Shown one piece after another: positions 3,048 through 26,538 of a DNA stretch of 28,116 nucleotides (its first letter is position 1; every line of letters starts with the position of its first letter). Under the pieces are notes generated by a model that worked only from the letters and a program-made list of their open reading frames with translations, had not been told where the DNA came from and made no database searches. The DNA comes from Bacteriovoracaceae bacterium (GTDB taxonomy: Bacteria > Bdellovibrionota > Bacteriovoracia > Bacteriovoracales > Bacteriovoracaceae): contig JBFGZE010000039.1 of the NCBI GenBank assembly GCA_041586955.1, positions 1 to 28,116 on the forward strand, in the 5' to 3' direction. The position numbers were made by a program, and so were the translations under genes.

Positions 3048-3497
3048 TTACTTCATCATCTTAGTGATAATGCGATTAAAGGAGTTCGCGAAACGTTCTT
3101 TATCCTTGGGCCCAAGAGGTGGCGGGCCGCCAGTGTCCACTCCACTGTCCCGTAATCCTTGCATAAAATCACGCATCGAAAGCCGTTCCCGTACATTTTC
3201 CTCGGTGTAAAGCTCCCCTCTAGGATTAATGGCGATGGCGCCTTTTTCCACAATAAGGGCGGCCAATGGAATATCGGCCGTAATGACAAGATCCTGTTTT
3301 TCCAAGTTTTCTACTATATAGAAGTCTGCAACATCAGCTCCTTTATCCACTTGAATGGATGTGATTAGGGATTCAAGTGGTACGGCCATGTAACTATTGG
3401 CGACGAGACAAACTGGGACTTTTAAGCGAAATGAGGCCTTAAAAATGATCTCTTTGACAATCTTGGGACAGGCATCGGCATCTATCCATATCTTCAT
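3048..3497 (-). CDS. yaiI: YaiI/YqxD family protein (DUF188, PIN-like fold)
   Basis: MKIWIDADACP N-terminus, ADFYI, VITADIPLAA, NPRGELYT, GGP motifs; start placed at MKIW (ORF track extends to 3515). Confidence 0.92.
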   Translation of the reverse strand: MKIWIDADACPKIVKEIIFKASFRLKVPVCLVANSYMAVPLESLITSIQVDKGADVADFYIVENLEKQDLVITADIPLAALIVEKGAIAINPRGELYTEENVRERLSMRDFMQGLRDSGVDTGGPPPLGPKDKERFANSFNRIITKMMK

Positions 3498-3716
3498 TTG
3501 CGAGCTTTCTCTCATTCTTCTATCCTATTAGCTAAGCGGCCATCATATCCTGCGCCCCAATAGTTGTAAAACTTGAAATTACAACTACTTAGTGAATAGT
3601 TAGGCCAGCTCAAGTTGCTCATTACCCTATCCTTTCAACCCGTTTTCCAGATAACGGTAGAAATTTTTCACTTATGGTGTTAGCTTCGGCGCAGTGAGAG
3701 ATTATTCTCAAAATAA

Positions 3717-4214
3717 ATGAAGAAGACGATTATGGAAAATAAAAGATTTAAAAGGGCCAGTACCCCAAGGCCCCAATCACTTGGTAAACCAAAGTCTTTT
3801 ACCAAACCAAAAGGCCCTAGAAAACCTCATGATCGGGGGAAAACAGTTTATATTGGTAACCTTCGTTACAAGAGAGATGAAAAGGGTATCATTTATCTTT
3901 TTGCTAAATACGGGCATGTTAAATCCGTTGAAATTGTAACTGAACCGGGAACAGATAAAAGTAAGGGCTATGCCTTTGTAAAAATGTCCAATTCAGATGA
4001 CGCCATAAAAGCAATCGCAGCGCTCAATAATCAAGTTGTTGATGGCCGTACATTAAAAGTAAGTGAGGCCCTTGAGCGGGATAAAGACAAAAGGCCTTAT
4101 TCCTATAAAGCTCCATCTTTTAATGACGGCAACGAGAAAAAAGTAGAAAAGAAAAAGAAACCTAGTAAAAGGAAAAAGGGCCTTAACGTCCTTTTTGATT
4201 ATCTCAAGGCCTAA
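3717..4214 (+). CDS. Single-RRM RNA-binding protein with Lys/Arg-rich N- and C-terminal extensions
   Basis: RNP2 VYIGNL and RNP1 KGYAFVKM, GRTLKVSEA; basic low-complexity flanks. Confidence 0.9.
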   Translation: MKKTIMENKRFKRASTPRPQSLGKPKSFTKPKGPRKPHDRGKTVYIGNLRYKRDEKGIIYLFAKYGHVKSVEIVTEPGTDKSKGYAFVKMSNSDDAIKAIAALNNQVVDGRTLKVSEALERDKDKRPYSYKAPSFNDGNEKKVEKKKKPSKRKKGLNVLFDYLKA

Positions 4215-15986: not shown

Positions 15987-17081
15987 TTATTTTATAATTT
16001 TCTTGGTAATACTGTCATATTGTAAGTAATACTTTTTAAGCAGGTCATGCCTTATTGCTGGAACAAAACGGTCATCCGCCCCTTTCATATCCTCAGAATG
16101 GATTAATGAATTAAGGATACTCTCCTCTGTCGCCTCAATAACTGCCTGATAGGCCAAATTAAGATGATTATCAAATATTAGATGAATTCCATGTTGATAT
16201 TTCTTTGAAGCATGCTTAATTTTATTTGCTGTTGAAAAGCCGACAACAATTTCCCCACTGCCATGAGCAGCATAGGATCCCATTCGACCAATACCAAGTG
16301 CTGCACGTTTACAAAGTCGATTAATTTGATGAGTGGACAAAGGCATATCAGTTGCAACAACAGTAATTATTGAGCCGTAATTTTCAACACGCCTTTGATA
16401 GTTTCCCTGGTCTTTAGCAAGACATAATCCAATTGGATAACCATTAACTCTCAACTCCTCCATATCGCCAAAATTACTTAAAACCAAAACCCCAACAGTA
16501 TAGTTTTTATCGTGTATTTTGAATATTCGACTAGAAGAACCTATCCCTCCTTTTAAATCACTGCAGACCATTCCTGTGCCAGCTCCGACACTTCCTTGCT
16601 CAATTATCCCAGATTTCGTGTTTTTAATCGCATCAAAAACGTCTTCATCAGTAATATGGAATTTAACACTATTATTTAAAAAGCTATCATCACACTCACC
16701 AACAACAGGAATCACAACATCTCTGTAATTCCAAATCTTTTCATACTTCTTACTCATCCACTTACTCATAGCTTCGGAAACTTTCCCTACGGACATAGTA
16801 TTTGTTAGAGCAATTGGTGTTTCTAAAAGGCCCCATTCAGTTAGCTGAGTAAGGCCTGATACCTCTCCGGCGCCATTTAAAATGAATTTACCACCAATAA
16901 ATTTATTATAAAAAATTTGATCATTAGGTTTGATAACGGTTACCCCCGTCCGTATATCATCACCTTCAATCAAAGTTTTATGGCCAACTTTAACACCTTT
17001 TACATCGGTAATATTATTGTTTGGCCCCTGTTCAAACTTTCCAATTTTAATTCCGAGGTCTTTAAGATCACTCTTCTTCAT
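15987..17081 (-). CDS. dmpA: DmpA/BapA-family (peptidase S58/P1) aminopeptidase, 364 aa
   Basis: GPNNNITDVKGVKVGH, RTGVTVI, NGAGE, PVVGECDDSFLN, GSVGAGTGM, KGGIGSSSR, self-cleavage G|SIITVVATD, HGSGE, ATEESILNSL; start at MKKSD with SD AGGTG overlapping the upstream stop. Confidence 0.92.
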   Translation of the reverse strand: MKKSDLKDLGIKIGKFEQGPNNNITDVKGVKVGHKTLIEGDDIRTGVTVIKPNDQIFYNKFIGGKFILNGAGEVSGLTQLTEWGLLETPIALTNTMSVGKVSEAMSKWMSKKYEKIWNYRDVVIPVVGECDDSFLNNSVKFHITDEDVFDAIKNTKSGIIEQGSVGAGTGMVCSDLKGGIGSSSRIFKIHDKNYTVGVLVLSNFGDMEELRVNGYPIGLCLAKDQGNYQRRVENYGSIITVVATDMPLSTHQINRLCKRAALGIGRMGSYAAHGSGEIVVGFSTANKIKHASKKYQHGIHLIFDNHLNLAYQAVIEATEESILNSLIHSEDMKGADDRFVPAIRHDLLKKYYLQYDSITKKIIK

Positions 17082-17088
17082 ATGACAC

Positions 17089-19110
17089 CTATCTAATGAC
17101 TGCCTGACGCCATCTTTTGATGGCCGGTCGTATAATTTTTCCAATCAATTGATTATAAGTTACTCCATTTTTATCAGCAATAATCGAAAGATCACTAAAA
17201 CCTGGAGAGAGTCCTGGCAGAGGGTTTATCTCAATAAAGTAGACTTCCTCATCTGCGGTGACGCGAAAATCAACTCTCGCGATATCACGGCATCCAGTGA
17301 TGATAAAAATATCCTTTGCGGCCTTACTTAGCTTACGAGTAAGTTTTTTGGAAATTTTTGGGGGACTTTGAAGCTTAAAGTATTTATTATCAAGTGGATT
17401 ACTCTCTTGCTTTGCCTCGAAAGAGTAAACAGGAAGAGAATCCATGGCGCCCTTAAATACAATCTCTGAAATCCCGAGAATAGATGGTACATTATTTCCC
17501 CAAACTCCAACCGTAAATTCTCGGCCAACAACATACTCTTCGCAAAGAATGGGTCCCATCTTCTCTTTAAAACTAAGCTGAATCCTTTCTCTAAATTCTT
17601 GATCATTACGGACAACTGAATTGTCGTAGATTCCTTTCGACGTCCCCTCTAAGTTTGGTTTCAAAATAACGGGGTATCGTAAATCGTGATTTAAATTTTT
17701 TGTGCCTACCTCAAATACCTTGGACCTTGGTGCGGATAGGCCTTCAGAGAGAACAAGCTTTGTTGAGAGTGATTTATTTAAGGTTATTGAAAGGCACGCG
17801 GCATCACTGCCGGTATGCTCAATATTAAGCAGATCACAAAGTGCTGGCACTTGTGCCTCCCGAGATCTTTTATGAAGACCTTCAGCAATATTGAAAACCA
17901 CATCAATTTTATTATCTTGTAAATTTTTTGCCAAATTTCTATCTGCTTCAATCAAGGTGATATTATGCCCATTGCTCCTAATGGCATCCCCAATAGCATT
18001 GATTGTCTCTTTACTGTCAAATTCTGCTTCATCTTCATAACCAATTTCACCAGGTTTTTTTCTTTTAACATTAAAAACTAGCGCAACATTTGGTTTTCTA
18101 AGTTCTAGCGCTCTCGATTTTTTAACACTTGGGCCAGCGATATGTTGCCTCTGTGTCGCAGAATTAATGATGGCCCCCAAGGTTTCGGAATAATTTTTAC
18201 CAGCAACATTCGCAGCGCTAAAAAGCCCTGCATCTTTTTGAAGTGATGGGAGAGCATTAACCTCGATAAAGTAAACCTCTCCTGAAGATGTCACACGAAA
18301 ATCCGCTCTGGCCATATCGAAAATCCCCAACCCCTCTACAACCAGCTTCATTTGCTCTATTAGTAAATGCTTTACTTTATTCCCAATATCAGCGGGACAT
18401 TTAACTCCGACAAGATCTCCATTAATATTTTTTAGATCATAATCATAAATAGTGACTCCGTCCTTCTCAATCCCACAGTACTCAACAGGTTCCAGTACTC
18501 CTTCGTTACCGAGTCCACTCACATAAGGAACAGTAATGTCCCTTCCTTCAATATATTTCTCAACTAAAAGACCTTCTGGAAACTGATCTAAAACTTCCCT
18601 TGCATAAATTAAAAAAGAATCTGCATCATCACACTTTGACCGTTGAGTAATCCCCTTACTAGAGCCTTCAAAGTTTGGTTTAACAAAAACAGGGTAACTT
18701 AACTCTCTAGCAAGAGACTCAATCTCTAAAGGTGTTGAAATAAAATAACTCCCTGGAGTCATGACCCCTTTTCTCTCCAGCACCTTTTTAGTGAGATATT
18801 TATCAAGGGTTAAGAAACATGCATAGGGTCCGCTCCCTACGTATTTTAAATTCACTTGTTCAAAAATAGTAGGAGCAAGCGCCTCCCGCCCGATGCCTGA
18901 AAAACCTTCGGCAGTGTTAAAGATGATATCTGCTTTTGAATTAATTAACTGATCAATCCACCGGCCATCTTTTGTCATTTCAATTTTTTCAACCTGGTGA
19001 CCAGCTTCTGTAATCCCACTCGAGATTTCTTCTATAACTTCAGGGGTATCAAACTCGGCTTCTTCGATTGCGGAACTTTTCTTCAAATTGTGTACAAATG
19101 CTACCTTCAT
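17089..19110 (-). CDS. Tandem two-domain D-Ala-D-Ala-ligase-like ATP-grasp protein, 673 aa
   Basis: Two homologous halves: EAEFD, FN(T/I)AEG, REA, (F/L)xKPNxEG(S/T)SKGI, E(K/E)Y(I/V)xGR, AR(A/V)DFRV, EVNALP and EINPLPGL; start MKVAF with SD GAGGG. Confidence 0.9.
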   Translation of the reverse strand: MKVAFVHNLKKSSAIEEAEFDTPEVIEEISSGITEAGHQVEKIEMTKDGRWIDQLINSKADIIFNTAEGFSGIGREALAPTIFEQVNLKYVGSGPYACFLTLDKYLTKKVLERKGVMTPGSYFISTPLEIESLARELSYPVFVKPNFEGSSKGITQRSKCDDADSFLIYAREVLDQFPEGLLVEKYIEGRDITVPYVSGLGNEGVLEPVEYCGIEKDGVTIYDYDLKNINGDLVGVKCPADIGNKVKHLLIEQMKLVVEGLGIFDMARADFRVTSSGEVYFIEVNALPSLQKDAGLFSAANVAGKNYSETLGAIINSATQRQHIAGPSVKKSRALELRKPNVALVFNVKRKKPGEIGYEDEAEFDSKETINAIGDAIRSNGHNITLIEADRNLAKNLQDNKIDVVFNIAEGLHKRSREAQVPALCDLLNIEHTGSDAACLSITLNKSLSTKLVLSEGLSAPRSKVFEVGTKNLNHDLRYPVILKPNLEGTSKGIYDNSVVRNDQEFRERIQLSFKEKMGPILCEEYVVGREFTVGVWGNNVPSILGISEIVFKGAMDSLPVYSFEAKQESNPLDNKYFKLQSPPKISKKLTRKLSKAAKDIFIITGCRDIARVDFRVTADEEVYFIEINPLPGLSPGFSDLSIIADKNGVTYNQLIGKIIRPAIKRWRQAVIR

Positions 19111-20201
19111 GGAACCCTCACTTTCCAATAACTTTTAACAATTAAAAGAATGGTTTATCTTCTCACTTTTGTATATAACTTCTAGAATCCTAGCATCAAT
19201 TTCCTATATGCTTGTGCCTATAAAAGAGATAACCCCATTCTCACGTTTTTCAACCATTAGCAGGTATGTCATTTTAAGAGCAAAGGCAATTAGATTACAA
19301 TTGATTTCAAGCGATTAGCGCAAGGCAGAATAAAAAGTGAGCTATCGCTATAATGAGCTCTCTTAATACCACAACTACTCTTTGACATTAACCTCTTAAA
19401 ATCAGTAAAGAACCATTTTTAAAGCGCACGACTTGCTATTATCATTGACAAAATATCAATAATAACAACTGGTTAATATATTTAATCCGCTTCATATGAG
19501 CTTAAGGAAGTCGTTCCCCTTGGCCCTACGGAGATAATAATGCTTCCTTTTATTGTAATAGAATTAACTAAATGGAGAGACGGCCCTTTCTATAAAAGCT
19601 CTCGTTTTTGTCATATCTTTTGTCGCTGGATAAACCAAGCTGACTGGAGCTTTCTTCGTTCACCTTTTCGTTAAGGGCAATGATCACTTTTTAAGAAGGC
19701 TATCGACTTTAAACTTTTTCTTTATTCTCATACAATTTCCCCTATCAATTTTTTCAAAGAGCATGACCTCGTGTTTTTTAAACCTTAAAGGTTAGTAGGA
19801 CGAGTGTAAATTTGAAGACTTTTTTTATGCGATCGAAAAAAGACTTGGCCTCCTAGTTCGTTTTACAAATGAGAAGTAACCTAACTTGCCTTATCCTTGG
19901 TTAGCTTAAGCTCCTTGAAAATTTTGATAAAGCTCTCTCACACCATCAGGTTTCTGATTTTTATTTATAATACTAGGACCCACATTTTTCATCTATGAAA
20001 TAGTAAGCTTTATTTAGGCCCCCTTTTGAAACACCTTTAAAACAAATTAAATTGATAATGACATAAGCGCATAACTATTAACGATTGGATTCGGTTTAGG
20101 CCTTTCTCTTCCCACTATAAATAGTGTTCTTAAGATTTTTTTTAAAAAAGGAACAAAAGTTTTTTCATTGACGATACAGGAAACTTCTCTAAAAACTTTA
20201 G

Positions 20202-20799: not shown

Positions 20800-21603
20800 T
20801 TATTTGATTTTATTGTGACTCAAGAATGGCAACATTAAAATTGGAACGACCGTAAAACAGACAACAAGTATCGCTCCCGCTGGGAAGTCTAATTTATAAC
20901 TCAAGGCCATACCAAGGACACAAACAAAAAAGCCAAAAATCCAGCCGAATATGAGTTGGGCCTTTATTTCACTTCTAAAAAGCGTACTTACCAATGCAGG
21001 GACGATTAAAAATGAAAACACTAATAATATTCCGGCAACTCCCACTGAAGAAGTTATAACCACACCAAACAGAGCAAAAAAAACAAAATCCCATAATACT
21101 CTATTAGCAACATTGCCCCCAAAGCTCACTGCAATAATCTGCTTTCTAAAATAATAATGAACACCTGCGACGATCGAATATATTATACTTGTTTTAATCA
21201 CATCATCCCATGATACCCATAAGATTCTCCCGACTAATATTTCTTTAATATGCTCAGACCCGTGAGAAAGGTTATTGACAACTAATATGACAAGCGCCGA
21301 GGCCAAGGCATAAACAATACCAATCAATATTTCTTGTGAAATTTTATTTTCAACTCTTCTGGCCCATGCAAAAAGTCCTGCAACGGCAAATGTATGGCCT
21401 AAAGACATAAAATAGCTTCCTGTAGAATGGTGTTCAATACCAAAAAGAAGGGCAACAGTCGTTCCAAGCCCGGCAACTTGTGCTAAACTTAGGTCAACAA
21501 AGATGACCCCTCTTTTTAAAACATGAAGTCCCATGTAACAATGAATTCCAACTAAAATAAGACACATAAAAAAAGGAGGTAGAAAAAACGTCAATACTTC
21601 CAT
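20800..21603 (-). CDS. ABC-3 family metal (Zn/Mn) transporter permease
   Basis: Multiple TM helices; GLHVLKRGVIFVDLSLAQVAGLG, LVGRILWV, GILLVFSFLIVPA, DFPAGA motifs; SD GAGGAG. Confidence 0.92.
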   Translation of the reverse strand: MEVLTFFLPPFFMCLILVGIHCYMGLHVLKRGVIFVDLSLAQVAGLGTTVALLFGIEHHSTGSYFMSLGHTFAVAGLFAWARRVENKISQEILIGIVYALASALVILVVNNLSHGSEHIKEILVGRILWVSWDDVIKTSIIYSIVAGVHYYFRKQIIAVSFGGNVANRVLWDFVFFALFGVVITSSVGVAGILLVFSFLIVPALVSTLFRSEIKAQLIFGWIFGFFVCVLGMALSYKLDFPAGAILVVCFTVVPILMLPFLSHNKIK

Positions 21604-21605
21604 GT

Positions 21606-22505
21606 CTATTTCTCCTCAACTGCGGAAACTAAACTCTCATATAGATCAAACAAGTTTAAGATTTTTGGTTCACCAGCAACTGAAACAGGAACAATCTTAA
21701 CTTTCAAACCCGCTACATCTTTTGCGACTCTTTTAGCAACAGTAGGATCAAAATAGTTTTCTACAATAGCTAACTTAACTCCCTCACTTCTCGCTTTTTT
21801 CATTACTCCTAAAATATGTCCCACTGAAGGAGGTATCCCGGGTTTAGGTTCAAGTAACGATACATTGATAATTCCAAAGCGATGGTAAAAGTACGTTAAG
21901 GTTTTGTGGTAGGTAATCACTTTTGTCCCAACTTTTATTCTTTTTTTCCACTGTTCTAACTTTAAAGTTAAATTGCTTGAAAACTTATTGAAGTTGCCCT
22001 CATATTCACGAGCATTCTCGGGATCAAGTTTTTTAAGTTTATCTCTTAACTTTTCTGCGATTTTTAGAGCATTAAGAGGATCCAGTAAAAAATGTGGATT
22101 TCCCTCTGGATGCACATCACCATCTGCCCTTGATATGGCCGCACTAGGTTTCTCTAGTGTTTCGATATACTCACCGGCAATAAAGCTTCCTGCTCCTCCT
22201 TCCCTTAACTTAGGGTTCCGAGAGCCTCTTAAGATAAGAGGGAGCCAACCAACTTCGAGCTCCAGACCAATTGAAACTAATAAATCTGCTTTGGAAGCTT
22301 TTAACATGTATGATGGTTTTGCCTCTATATAATGTGGATCTTGCGTTCCTTTAGAAAAGGACTCCACATCAACTTTTTCACCAGCAACCATCTCAACTAG
22401 ATTTTTAAGATTATTGGTTGTCGTTAAAACTTTCAATTTTGCATGCCCGGTGAAGGGCAATAAGCAAGCAAGTACAACAAATGGTATCTTAAAATATTTT
22501 TTCAT
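21606..22505 (-). CDS. Cluster A-I metal-binding protein (ZnuA/TroA/AdcA family), 299 aa
   Basis: Signal peptide ending GHA; QDPHY, GLELEVGWL, DVHPEGNPHFLLDP, TYHKTLTYF, EPKPGIPP; start MKKYF with SD AAGG. Confidence 0.93.
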   Translation of the reverse strand: MKKYFKIPFVVLACLLPFTGHAKLKVLTTTNNLKNLVEMVAGEKVDVESFSKGTQDPHYIEAKPSYMLKASKADLLVSIGLELEVGWLPLILRGSRNPKLREGGAGSFIAGEYIETLEKPSAAISRADGDVHPEGNPHFLLDPLNALKIAEKLRDKLKKLDPENAREYEGNFNKFSSNLTLKLEQWKKRIKVGTKVITYHKTLTYFYHRFGIINVSLLEPKPGIPPSVGHILGVMKKARSEGVKLAIVENYFDPTVAKRVAKDVAGLKVKIVPVSVAGEPKILNLFDLYESLVSAVEEK

Positions 22506-22515
22506 TGGTTTACCT

Positions 22516-23550
22516 TTAATACGCGTGTGCAGGGTGAGCACCAATACTTATATTTAATTGCAGACTTAAGCGTTTTTCATCTTTCTCTTGGCCATCATTA
22601 GTTGTTTCGTATTGCAATCGGATACTGCTAAATTCTGACGGGAGAAATGCTATTAATCCTGTATGTCTTTGACTCGGACTTCCAGATTTTGATTTGTTTA
22701 GGCCAAGGTAATCATAACGGTATTGAGCATACCATCTTTGGGCCATTTGATATTTCAAATGACTCACCACACCTGATAGCTTGCCATCAGAAGCTCCCTT
22801 TCTATCTTTTTGTAAATACTCACTACCCCATTCAAATGAACGATACTTTCCACCTTGAGATGGCCTCCATTTAAGGGTTAAGTCTGCACCATAAAGATGA
22901 GTATCCAAATGATCTGAATTTTTCCCTTGTGCCCCTGAAAAACCTAACTCAAGAGTTGTCGAATCAGAAAAATCCCAGAGATTTTTAAACCTTGCCACAA
23001 TCGCTTTGTTATCATTAAGATCACTATTGAATAAATCCTCATTTTCCCCCTGTATATAACTCAAGTTCACTTCACTAAACCAAGGTAGCGGGATTAAAGC
23101 GCTTGCTCCAACTCCTGTTTCATTTAACCCTTCCTCACCTAGAATTGTCTCATTTACTAATGGAGCATTAATAAAGGGAAAGGCATGAGTATGAAGTTGA
23201 TTATGCTTCCCTAACGCCATTTTGAACTTTCCGGCCATCAGTGTCACATAAGGAATTGCAATTGTTTCGACATAGACCTCTTCTGGTTCAATACCATAGG
23301 CACCATCTTCTTTAGCAACAGCAAAAAGGGCCTTGGCAGAAAAATAGGCATCGACATCAGAACTGAATTGAAGCTCAGCTTCCTGTAGCTTGACTCCATC
23401 CTCATCACTATCACGATCCGAATTTTGATTTAAAAACAGTACGTTAATCCCAATATCCGGATTAAAAGAATTGCCCCTCGACTTTTGTTTTTGGGCATGG
23501 GCGATAGTACTCACTAATAAAATTAACAATATGTAAAATGTTTTCATCAT
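22516..23550 (-). CDS. Outer-membrane beta-barrel of the metal-uptake-associated family with C-terminal GAHxAHx(Y/F) motif
   Basis: Signal peptide AHA|Q, FNPDIG, EAELQFSSDVDAY, EEVYV, GKHNQLHTHAFPFI, SEFSSIRLQY, IGAHPAHAY; 344 aa is too short for a TonB plug plus 22-strand barrel; SD GGAG. Confidence 0.82.
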   Translation of the reverse strand: MMKTFYILLILLVSTIAHAQKQKSRGNSFNPDIGINVLFLNQNSDRDSDEDGVKLQEAELQFSSDVDAYFSAKALFAVAKEDGAYGIEPEEVYVETIAIPYVTLMAGKFKMALGKHNQLHTHAFPFINAPLVNETILGEEGLNETGVGASALIPLPWFSEVNLSYIQGENEDLFNSDLNDNKAIVARFKNLWDFSDSTTLELGFSGAQGKNSDHLDTHLYGADLTLKWRPSQGGKYRSFEWGSEYLQKDRKGASDGKLSGVVSHLKYQMAQRWYAQYRYDYLGLNKSKSGSPSQRHTGLIAFLPSEFSSIRLQYETTNDGQEKDEKRLSLQLNISIGAHPAHAY

Positions 23551-23633
23551 TTAGACTCCAAGTAAAATTCTTCAATAAAACGACTGACTTCAACTAACAG
23601 TCAGAAGGGTTTCAAAAATAAAATAAACTGATG

Positions 23634-23909
23634 CTAAACGCTGGGAGGTGCCCGAGGGCCAATACTTTTAGAAAAAAAAGGTTTGAGTATAAGATCATTC
23701 TCAGTAATAGGAATTACTCTGATTAAAGCTAAATTAGAATCAAAACTTGTATCTATTGTCATGGGAACAAGTCCCGGTTGACGAGATAATAACTTACAAA
23801 CGACACAATAATGATCTCTATTATCGTGATCAGATTCAGAGTGGCCAAATCCATGGACCTGAATTAAAAACAGCGACAATAGAGTAATTAATGATAGATA
23901 CTTTTTCAT
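23634..23909 (-). CDS. DUF2946/CruR-like leader protein with His-rich CxxC and C-terminal RAPP arrest motif, 91 aa
   Basis: MKKYLSLITLLSLFLIQVH signal-like N-terminus, HGFGHSESDHDNRDHYCVVC, C-terminal GPRAPPSV; lies 83 nt upstream of the barrel gene in the same orientation. Confidence 0.8.
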   Translation of the reverse strand: MKKYLSLITLLSLFLIQVHGFGHSESDHDNRDHYCVVCKLLSRQPGLVPMTIDTSFDSNLALIRVIPITENDLILKPFFSKSIGPRAPPSV

Positions 23910-24222
23910 AAGCAAAAAGATAATTACATACTTATTAAAAATGGTCGATAAAAAACATATTGTTTTTTGCAGGAGTGCGGCATTATAGCAATAATCACAA
24001 TCTCGTTTCGCCCCTGAAGCATAGCGCAAAAACGCCGCAGAAGCTCCTGATTTCTATTTTGAGTAAAGGACTCAAAAATTGTCCGGATCCAATGAGAATG
24101 TGTTATCTTTTCCAGCGCTTAGAGAGCAAAAGTTGCCAATTTTAGTAATTAGAATGACTACCACTGACTAAAGGTTTTACCCTAAGCATAAAATTGAACC
24201 AACTTAAGAGGTTAAAAGACAA

Positions 24223-25101: not shown

Positions 25102-26439
25102 TTAAAATGAGTAATTAAGCTTGGCCTTGAGATAATCTTGAGTGCGGTAATTACTCCAATATGAGCTGCTTCGAGGCGCCTTTATCATGCCCAATTCGAC
25201 GCCTGTATGCCAACCTTGTGCCAATCTTATCCGCATGGATGCGTTTAATAATTGATCATTCTTAACGAGGTCAAAACGATAGGACCCAGACATCGAAAAT
25301 TGACGCCCCGGTTTCCAACTCAACTTGCCACCCACAGCAGTATCCCATTTGATTAAATTAGAGTAAAAATCATCAGTGCCCAATTCATGGTCCGTAAAGT
25401 ATTTAATAAGACCAAACTCATAAGAAAAATCTTTGCGATGCCCTTGAAAGTTCAGAGAGCCAATGACCTCTTTTTCATAGCGCGGCTCAATCTTGAAATA
25501 GTCAGAAAGAAAAGTGCGATTACTTTCCTTTAATTGGAGTGGATCAAGAATAGAAAAATCTTGACCATAAGATGCCTGCGGGTCCACCAACAAAAAACCT
25601 AAACTGAGACGGCCATTTTTCTTCCCCAGATAGGAGTTGAGCCCATAAACCATATGATGATTCACAATTGGTGAGGCGTTAACAACAACCCGATCAATGG
25701 CCCCATCATAATAGGCTTCAGCATTAATACGGATCCGCGGCTCAGGCTTATAGATCACAAAAGCATCAACACCATAGTCTTTCCCTTTATGCCCCAGACT
25801 TAGGCCCAAGCTTTTTTTAAGGGCATATTTATACCACTTATCCATTTCAAGGGTATAATGAATGGGAATCACCCGTCCTAAAATAGTTGTCCTCGTTGGC
25901 GGCAAACTTTCCCAATAAGAGTTAGTGACCACCTTGCCATCCTCAATATCCAGCCCAGGGTTACGCTCTGGTTGATAAAGATAAGAGACGAAAAATTTGA
26001 AATGAAGTGCACCCTGTCGTCCTTTAAAATGAAGACCCCAATGACCGTTAGACTTTTCATCAAGCAGATCAAAATTACGACGCCCGCTTAATTGACCTAA
26101 GAGCCAAAAATCTTCTTGAGAAAACCAACTAAGTCTTTTCCGGCCAATGGCCACAGAGGCCTTTTTGCTCTTAACCGATGTATAGAGTTCACTTATTTCC
26201 CACTCGATGTTTTTTTTATGATTTAAATAGCGAAGATCAATATCTGTGGAAGATCTAAATTCACGAAAGCGGTATTTGCCATAATGGCCTAGACTAACCC
26301 CTCCACCATTGAGTGATTTATTATCTTGATTGAGCTCATTAATATTAATTAAGGAGAGATCAGCAGCTGCAAACGCCTGAAAAGACATCAATAAATTTAT
26401 TAAAGTTAGCACTCTCGCTATTAGTTGATAATGACTCAT
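25102..26439 (-). CDS. Putative outer-membrane beta-barrel protein, unknown function
   Basis: Signal peptide ending AFA, EISELY..., AIGRKRLSW porin-like segment, alternating aromatic strands, C-terminal beta-signal LKAKLNYSF; start uncertain (ATG 26439 or GTG 26508). Confidence 0.72.
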   Translation of the reverse strand: MSHYQLIARVLTLINLLMSFQAFAAADLSLININELNQDNKSLNGGGVSLGHYGKYRFREFRSSTDIDLRYLNHKKNIEWEISELYTSVKSKKASVAIGRKRLSWFSQEDFWLLGQLSGRRNFDLLDEKSNGHWGLHFKGRQGALHFKFFVSYLYQPERNPGLDIEDGKVVTNSYWESLPPTRTTILGRVIPIHYTLEMDKWYKYALKKSLGLSLGHKGKDYGVDAFVIYKPEPRIRINAEAYYDGAIDRVVVNASPIVNHHMVYGLNSYLGKKNGRLSLGFLLVDPQASYGQDFSILDPLQLKESNRTFLSDYFKIEPRYEKEVIGSLNFQGHRKDFSYEFGLIKYFTDHELGTDDFYSNLIKWDTAVGGKLSWKPGRQFSMSGSYRFDLVKNDQLLNASMRIRLAQGWHTGVELGMIKAPRSSSYWSNYRTQDYLKAKLNYSF

Positions 26440-26538
26440 GGCCCCTAGTATTCCAAAACTGAAGCATTTAGGCCATGAGAAAGGATTAATCGGGAAAACT
26501 TTAGTCACTCCGCGTCAAAACCTCCCATATTCGAAACT

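Follow-up and report, generated by a model that had tools for sequence, protein, structure and literature searches.

A candidate CruR/CutF-type arrest-peptide leader ahead of porin and zinc-type transport genes in a Bacteriovoracaceae bacterium

What is the role of a 91-codon open reading frame (ORF) that stands as the first gene of a metal-transport module? The question is raised by a contig from a marine Bacteriovoracaceae bacterium of predatory type (JBFGZE010000039.1, assembly GCA_041586955.1), the 28,116 nucleotides of which were analysed as a whole and are referred to here as the window. The ORF, termed the leader, lies directly ahead of genes for an outer-membrane barrel, a substrate-binding protein of the ZnuA family and a permease of the ABC-3 family (ABC, ATP-binding cassette). 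A preliminary description of this DNA, made from the letters alone, had noted an ORF of 91 amino acids with a signal-like N-terminus, a CxxC motif and a terminal RAPPSV upstream of barrel, binding-protein and permease genes, and all of this is present as described. The interval given there, 23551-23909, holds the ORF together with the 83-nucleotide spacer that follows it, and needs the correction that the feature is on the minus strand. By analogy with characterised relatives, the leader is probably a cis-acting regulatory leader of the CruR/CutF type which serves the leader-porin-binding protein-permease module, ribosome arrest and control by metal being included in this reading.

The translated leader starts with a basic MKK, followed by a hydrophobic stretch of 13 residues and then VHG; a hydrophobic N-terminal segment is likewise seen in all 25 leaders of an alignment (A2) that is described below. 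Besides the two histidines of an HxxxH motif there are further ones at positions 28 and 33, and in this leader 47 residues separate the CxxC from the RAPP. After the second proline, Pro89, there is only Ser-Val-stop, so that the RAPP is two residues before the leader's end. The codon for Arg86, CGG (23652-23654), is the rarest arginine codon of the genome, with 7.9% of the arginine codons in long ORFs, and the nucleotides of the P-R-A-P-P codons are almost unchanged across the four closest loci. From the short gaps and the overlaps between the genes, the leader and the downstream genes would form one transcript.

Motifs of this kind are rare in the window's own genome (G000; 3.46 Mb, 39% G+C). 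Only 11 R[AG]PP motifs occur in the 10,749 six-frame ORFs of at least 50 amino acids from the whole genome, and only two of these ORFs carry one within eight residues of the C-terminus; the leader is one of the two. The reading of the leader as a chance ORF is ruled out by this rarity and by the conservation in orthologues that is described next. The other such ORF (contig C10:59022-59366, minus strand; L053:6023-6367) encodes 114 amino acids with a signal-like N-terminus, has no Pfam match and is followed on the same strand by an ORF of 87 amino acids, likewise without a Pfam match. Judging by its sequence, it may be a second arrest-peptide candidate.

Orthologues that are 29-55% identical to the leader are of like length, at 91, 92 and 91 residues, and have both motifs in the same places. 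In G001, a relative that belongs to the same family but to a different genus, the orthologue has 91 amino acids and shows 34% identity by tblastn and 29% in alignment A2, with the CxxC and the RAPP at equal residue numbers; it is followed, after a gap of 80 nucleotides, by a homologue of the barrel and then by a homologue of ZnuA. With the barrel protein as the anchor, 28 loci were fetched from Bdellovibrionota and Nitrospinota and the region directly upstream of each barrel gene was inspected. Seventeen have a leader that ends in R[AG]PP plus two to five residues, two have RSPP in its place and one has RRPP; two loci run off contig ends and six are without a leader. A terminal RxPP leader is found, then, in 20 of the 26 assessable barrel loci with G001 in addition, and the conservation of the upstream open reading frame (uORF) and its motifs in orthologous operons, named in the preliminary description as a check, is borne out in them. 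The gene order leader-barrel-binding protein is kept in G001 and in 20 further loci, and in almost all loci the barrel gene is followed by a gene for a binding protein of about 300 amino acids and one for a permease of about 270 amino acids. In Nitrospinota loci two leaders stand in tandem ahead of the porin-ZnuA-ABC-3 module, each with HxH, CxxC and R[AG]PP (Table 1).

The association was also approached from the side of the leader. A profile search of 301 sampled Bdellovibrionota genomes found a leader in nine, G000 included; in each of the eight others the barrel comes next, and in seven of them a binding-protein gene can be seen as well. These genomes overlap with the barrel-anchored set, and the search confirms the direction of the association without being an independent sample. 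A word-based homology search with the 91-residue peptide returned the leader itself only, the peptide being too short and too diverged for that approach. Positions 20800-24100 of the window were found, whole or in part, in four marine metagenome DNA runs from one study; there was no RNA among the runs listed.

Alignment A2 holds 25 leaders that were chosen for a terminal RxPP. Their mean column identity is 23%, yet M1, H19, H23, C35, R86, P88 and P89 are invariant. The gap between the CxxC and the RxPP is 43-47 residues in all 21 leaders that have a CxxC, and the RxPP is two to five residues before the end in all 25, a set selected for its terminal position.

The preliminary description had placed the leader with CruR, the prototype of the DUF2946 family (PF11162). 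Compared with the PF11162 profile, the leader gave an E value of 0.0059 and 17.8 bits over profile positions 52-117 of 117, that is, through the last position; the gathering cut-off is 23.7 bits. PF11162 is the sole Pfam family that the leader touches, and a search of G000 with this profile found the leader ORF alone, below the cut-off. Five of the 25 clade leaders match PF11162 at E < 0.1. A clade profile built from the 25 orthologues was then compared with 1.84 billion representative proteins and gave 625 matches at E <= 0.001. Among the best 150 of the 625, 13 match PF11162 at E <= 0.001, five pass its cut-off and no other Pfam family is matched; P0091, which is among the five, is clearly a sister of the leaders that precede the barrel in loci L026 and L028. 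The same best 150 also share the anatomy of the leader: 142 have an RxPP within eight residues of the end (RAPP in 90, RGPP in 39, RSPP in 12 and RPPP in one), which in these 142 is one to seven residues from the stop; a CxxC is present in 138, its gap to the RxPP being 42-47 residues in 137 of them; and in 132 an HxH or HxxxH occurs within 30 residues before the CxxC.

The paper that defines CruR (PMC9426467; this and the other papers on CruR, CutF and the Apd peptides are drawn upon for the parts of their texts that were available) describes a CxxC and a RAPP, the latter three residues before the end, with a gap of 45 residues between the two. It reports that this gap is held within one or two residues over more than 2000 DUF2946 proteins, that more than 95% of DUF2946 proteins carry an export signal and that the gene is the first in metal operons. 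Because each sequence feature in that paper is present in the leader, the export signal as a signal-like N-terminus, we class the leader, on its sequence, as a diverged member of the CruR/CutF (DUF2946) leader family whose own hidden Markov model score is sub-threshold. The assignment made in the preliminary description is upheld by the CxxC, the C-terminal RAPP, the fixed spacing and the profile links to bona fide DUF2946 proteins.

How might such a leader act? It would be translated and, from its signal-like N-terminus, targeted to the Sec translocon. Going by the behaviour of the family, the ribosome would arrest at the RAPP; Pro88 would be in the P site and Pro89 in the A site, positions that are taken from the CruR toeprint (PMC12992588). 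Arrest of CruR was shown there by in vitro translation and toeprinting, and uORFs ending in RAPP or RGPP before metal-homeostasis genes form a catalogued class (PMC12992588). RAPP arrest itself has been shown for CruR, ApdA and ApdP only. At the arrest the CxxC would be about 50 residues from the peptidyl-transferase centre and, because the 43-47-residue spacing is constant, it would be placed just outside the ribosome-translocon, beside the HxxxH at the outer end of the signal segment. When metal is scarce the arrest would persist and the operon would be expressed. When metal is plentiful it would be bound by the two histidines and two cysteines, the chain would fold, the arrest would be released and expression would drop. 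This direction, in which metal turns expression off, is proposed because the cargo is an importer, as it is for CruR.

The arrested ribosome could be coupled to the downstream genes in more than one way. In the window it would cover the leader's last codons, which would otherwise be paired with the start region of the porin gene; a blocking of Rho, as in CruR, is equally possible. In the minimum free energy fold, the leader's last sense codon and stop are paired with the start region of the barrel gene. Forcing the footprint of the arrested ribosome to be single-stranded raised the mean unpaired probability of the barrel gene's Shine-Dalgarno and start region from 0.26 to 0.52, and masking as strong was seen in only 7% of shuffled footprints; for the window, this is in keeping with an unmasking of the ribosome-binding site in the manner of CutF/SecM.

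The resemblance to CruR (Bp2923 of Bordetella pertussis; PMC9426467) extends beyond the motifs. Both leaders are small, are exported (by prediction for the window leader) and are the first gene of a metal-uptake operon; in both a non-coding spacer follows, and then an outer-membrane uptake protein, and the expected logic is the same, arrest keeping uptake on and metal releasing the arrest. The two differ in that CruR has 145 amino acids whereas the window leader has 91, scores below the cut-off and has an invariant HxxxH beside the signal segment. The CruR spacer, at 162 nucleotides, is GC-rich and contains a Rho site in B. pertussis, while that in the window has 83 nucleotides and is AT-rich. 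The cargo of CruR is a TonB-dependent receptor with a PepSY protein, as against a porin with ZnuA and ABC-3 proteins here, and the metal of the window leader, unlike that of CruR, is probably not copper. Bdellovibrionota and Nitrospinota, the hosts of the present leaders, are not among the phyla listed in the available text of the CruR paper (PMC9426467).

CutF of Rhodobacter capsulatus (PMC9973294; preprint 10.1101/2025.02.05.636593) is of the same family and, like the window leader, has a Cys/His site, a proline stall motif at the C-terminus and a Sec signal, which for the window leader is a prediction; its spacer is likewise short, and structure over the next ribosome-binding site can be opened there by a stalled ribosome, as is predicted for the window. 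What CutF controls is a detoxifying oxidase, and its stalling is induced by copper; the cargo in the window is an importer, for which the opposite sign is expected. Opposite regulatory signs within the family are on record, as CutF shows, and CutF-like leaders with His-only motifs before HupE/UreJ genes are considered probably not copper-specific (PMC9973294).

The nature of the cargo bears on which metal might be sensed. The barrel protein has no match in Pfam or NCBIfam. Its AlphaFold2 model (predicted local distance difference test score 83.7, predicted template modelling score 0.79) has 16 strands and a long loop, residues 111-142, between strands 5 and 6. Foldseek relates the model to VhChiP, OmpT, OprP and OmpC/OmpF, with template modelling scores of 0.60-0.66 and E values from 3.5e-11 to 1e-8, and the barrel's neighbours in a protein-language-model atlas are porin-like clusters. 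According to the model, the barrel is a plug-less 16-stranded porin fold with no plug domain. In alignment A3, of 28 barrel sequences, the motif GKHNQLHxH is invariant on the strand 5-6 loop, and the C-terminus reads GAHPAHAY. In general porins the strand 5-6 loop forms the constriction, and by this topology the His-rich loop of the barrel would lie inside the pore.

The gene for the binding protein probably starts at the ATG at 22505, Met14 of the ORF being nearly invariant. Its product is remote from characterised proteins: the best NCBIfam match, AztC, has 86.9 bits where the cut-off is 350, and the closest relative with a solved structure is found at E 1.4e-15. Alignment with MntA/PsaA places His71, His151, His213 and an Asp at the ligand positions, the third ligand being a histidine where Mn-type proteins have a glutamate. 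The three histidines are invariant or nearly so in an alignment of 26 sequences (A5), where the rows inspected visually have Asp or Glu at the fourth site, a column that was not flagged as conserved. On this alignment the His-His-His-Asp ligand set is of the Zn/TroA/AztC type and not of the Mn type, a correction to the Zn/Mn-type uptake named in the preliminary description. The view taken there that the transporter class differs from CruR's TonB-dependent receptor is sustained by the plug-less porin fold, the cluster A-I protein and the ABC-3 permease.

Pfam puts the binding protein and the permease in the families to which those of ZnuABC and AztABC belong, and the three histidines and an aspartate are those of AztC and TroA. 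Unlike those systems, the module has no ATPase gene at any locus that was inspected and has a porin gene of its own ahead of that for the binding protein, whose score falls far short of the equivalog cut-offs; no Fur/Zur gene is found upstream in 24 loci. The ORF after the permease is on the opposite strand and encodes a DOPA-dioxygenase-family protein. When 22 downstream ORFs of related loci were scanned, the sole ATPase was in a separate, complete ZnuA-ZnuC-ZnuB set, an operon directly after the module in locus L044 (L044:6983-9119). G001, which is 95% complete, has a single ABC-3 permease; in G000 a second ABC-3 permease is present as a fragment at a contig edge (C64), and the assembly may therefore have broken up a canonical znu locus. 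In locus L038 an ArsP_2 gene (L038:5967-7028), of a putative 10-transmembrane heavy-metal exporter family, lies between the binding-protein and permease genes.

Table 1. Positions of the leader, its parts and the associated genes, in window coordinates unless a locus is named
Feature	Position	Strand	Basis or detail
Leader ORF P0001, 91 codons and stop; CruR/CutF-like arrest-peptide candidate	23634..23909	minus	ATG at 23909, stop 23636-23634
Residues 1-20, putative export signal or signal anchor	23850..23909	minus	read from translation
His19-x3-His23 (HxxxH)	23841..23855	minus	columns H19 and H23 invariant in 25/25 leaders (A2)
Cys35-Val-Val-Cys38 (CxxC), His33 before it	23796..23807	minus	Cys35 invariant in 25/25, full CxxC in 21/25
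Arg86-Ala-Pro-Pro89, proposed stall site	23643..23654	minus	codons CGG GCA CCT CCC; R86, P88, P89 invariant (A2)
Spacer, leader to barrel gene, 83 nucleotides, AT-rich	23551..23633	minus	hairpin, U-rich run, barrel gene's GGAG at 23559-23556
Porin-like 16-stranded outer-membrane barrel, 344 amino acids (predicted)	22516..23550	minus	AlphaFold2, Foldseek, A3
Cluster A-I (ZnuA-family) substrate-binding protein	21606..22544	minus	PF01297, E 5.5e-45
ABC-3 family permease	20800..21603	minus	PF00950, E 3.2e-27
Candidate promoter	23920..23948	minus	TCGACC 23948-23943, 17-nucleotide spacer containing TG, AATTAT 23925-23920
Tandem leaders	L038:2868-3170, 3382-3684; L044:3232-3516, 3627-3923; L046:29-280, 392-688; L047:2983-3267, 3380-3676		

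From these sequences the cargo looks zinc-type rather than copper-type; the ligand set, the His loop of the porin and the adjoining ZnuACB set of L044 favour zinc without proving it. As for the metal that the leader itself would sense, we consider zinc the most likely, at about even chance, and regard copper as a rather unlikely candidate, nickel, cobalt or a mixture of metals making up the remainder. A more detailed zinc version can be drawn up, in which the HxxxH and the CxxC would form a Cys2His2 site, zinc-induced folding would pull on the chain and release the arrest, and the leader would be the sole sensor of a Zur-independent zinc route from the outer to the inner membrane in Bdellovibrionota and Nitrospinota, made up of a porin whose constriction loop is lined with histidines and of ZnuA and ZnuB proteins that borrow an unlinked ATPase; taken as a whole, this version is tentative.

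The alternative that survives best is an orthodox copper sensor, that is, a CruR orthologue which, with copper, represses a copper-import module made up of a Znu-like protein and a porin carrying copper. The CxxC is kept in 21 of the 25 clade members, as a copper sensor would have it, yet the extra invariant HxxxH completes a Cys2His2 set, which is typical of zinc. His-rich sites bind Cu(II) too, and the distance of the binding protein from characterised ones means that its specificity is not fixed by such matches; against this, its ligands are the set found in zinc proteins, TroA and AztC, the conserved motifs examined in the porin and the binding protein are His-based, and in L044 the neighbour of the module is a canonical ZnuACB set. 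We know of no copper-specific binding protein of cluster A-I, which also counts against this explanation. Altogether we consider an orthodox copper sensor unlikely.

Far less probable is that the leader encodes a small exported metal-binding protein, a metallochaperone or scavenger feeding the binding protein, in which the RAPP is structural or incidental. A signal-like export segment and conserved His and Cys residues would suit such a protein, as would its inferred co-transcription with transport genes, and the arrest proposed at this locus comes from analogy with relatives. A mean column identity of 23% beyond the seven invariant positions fits a spacer better than a folded domain, however, and the fixed distances from RxPP to stop and from CxxC to RxPP are meaningful with respect to the ribosome but not with respect to a fold. 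Moreover, RAPP is depleted from bacterial proteomes owing to translation arrest (PMC12992588), and CruR and CutF escaped detection as proteins in vivo (PMC9426467, PMC9973294).

Finally, a metal-independent secretion monitor of the SecM/ApdA/ApdP type, released by the pull of translocation, is scarcely credible: although a signal peptide with a C-terminal RAPP is the exact architecture of ApdA and ApdP, none of the downstream genes (porin-like barrel, ZnuA, ABC-3) encodes a part of Sec or YidC, such a monitor would leave the invariant His and Cys residues and the constant distance from CxxC to RAPP without a function, and by family the leader goes with DUF2946 rather than with the Apd peptides. 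ApdA, ApdP and other RAPP peptides (PMC7897499, PMC10951233, PMC10987492) do resemble the leader in being encoded by small uORFs, in being exported or targeted to the membrane and in having a RAPP close to the C-terminus; they precede genes for protein localisation (Sec/YidC) and have no conserved Cys/His sensor, as opposed to the metal-transport genes of the window.

Returning to the reading of the leader as a CruR/CutF-type regulator, there are several observations that weigh against it or against parts of it. The leader's score against PF11162, 17.8 bits and in the genome search 15.8 bits, is under the cut-off. Six of the 26 assessable barrel loci are without a leader, so the module can exist leaderless, and the leader is patchy in the phylum, being found in 9 of 301 genomes. 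The CxxC is missing in four of the 25 clade members; these four, from Bdellovibrio-like genomes, keep two histidines and one aligned cysteine. His19 is at position -2 of a plausible signal-peptidase site and may be removed from the mature peptide. There is no Shine-Dalgarno sequence before the leader's ATG. The rise in accessibility of the barrel gene's start exceeded 0.15 in 7 of 22 loci, was about zero in G001 and was negative in locus L025; with 7 of 22 loci only, unmasking of the ribosome-binding site was rejected as a family-wide mechanism. The z-scores of the folds, from -0.4 to -1.6, are not significant against shuffles. On the metal, CxxC is a classic Cu(I) motif, and the two characterised family members, CruR and CutF, both respond to copper via Cys motifs. 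As regards transport, there is no ATPase gene after the permease in the window or in G001, and a query with the ZnuC of L044 brought up, in both G000 and G001, nothing but generic ABC ATPases with 29-35% identity; because the operon is without an ATPase and no ZnuC-like ATPase was found in these two genomes, the case for a working importer is incomplete.

The DNA and RNA around the leader were also inspected for control elements. The leader's upstream neighbour, an fpg-type glycosylase gene, is divergent. The candidate promoter of Table 1 was not reported by a consensus promoter scan (8 of 12 matches); with low confidence, it would give a nearly leaderless leader mRNA. The blocks ATCGAC(C/G)A and TGTAA(T/A)(T/A)AT are common to the window and loci L022 and L023. 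A perfect 8-3-8 palindrome lies at 23950-23968, just upstream of the candidate -35 box; as it is not conserved in L003, L022 and L023, a repressor operator is not claimed there, and no conserved operator upstream of the leader was found when the window was compared with these three loci. A search of 64 upstream ORFs of at least 110 amino acids from 24 loci found no Fur/Zur-family domain, which would fit a role of the leader as main sensor of the module but is negative evidence only.

Within the spacer there is a hairpin of 6 base pairs with a 9-nucleotide loop (arms 23604-23599 and 23589-23584) and a U-rich tail, about 30 nucleotides past the stop, and hairpins are found at the equivalent position in L022 and L023. 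An intrinsic terminator or attenuator in the spacer was considered and is not claimed, since the hairpin is outside the footprint of the arrested ribosome, it failed the terminator scan and the z-scores are non-significant.

Bacterial zinc uptake is generally thought to be under the transcriptional repressor Zur. To our knowledge, CruR and CutF are the only metal-sensing arrest peptides to have been studied experimentally, and both respond to copper. On sequence grounds a branch of the CruR/CutF family, with about 625 representative clusters retrieved by the clade profile, appears to be fixed before a zinc-type importer; if the proposal is true, nascent-chain sensing would cover a metal other than copper as well and reach two more phyla. 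The variation in ligand sets (HxxxH with CxxC, or His with a single Cys) and the tandem copies could reveal how the signal reaches the peptidyl-transferase centre. The cargo is notable too, comprising a porin family, so far undescribed, whose strand 5-6 loop has an invariant His motif, and a conserved binding-protein/permease pair without an ATPase gene. Supplementary lists aside, none of the publications searched describes an RAPP/CruR-type leader branch that goes with ZnuA/ABC-3 importers and a porin with a His loop; as far as the main texts of PMC9426467 and PMC9973294 were available, they contain the words 'zinc' and 'ABC' 0 times, and the latter names no ZnuA or ABC-3 neighbour class. A paper on the Zur regulon of Caulobacter has two DUF2946 proteins, uncommented, among the zur-affected genes, one of them beside czr efflux genes (PMC4176598).

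Two further parts of the window's minus strand, away from the module, were observed. At 25102-26508 an ORF of 468 amino acids has a signal-like N-terminus and a C-terminal NYSF, with no match in Pfam or NCBIfam, and may from these features be another outer-membrane barrel. At 15987-19128 a protein of 679 amino acids with two halves of the ATP-grasp/D-Ala-D-Ala-ligase type is encoded, followed by an overlapping gene for a peptidase of family S58 (DmpA-type).

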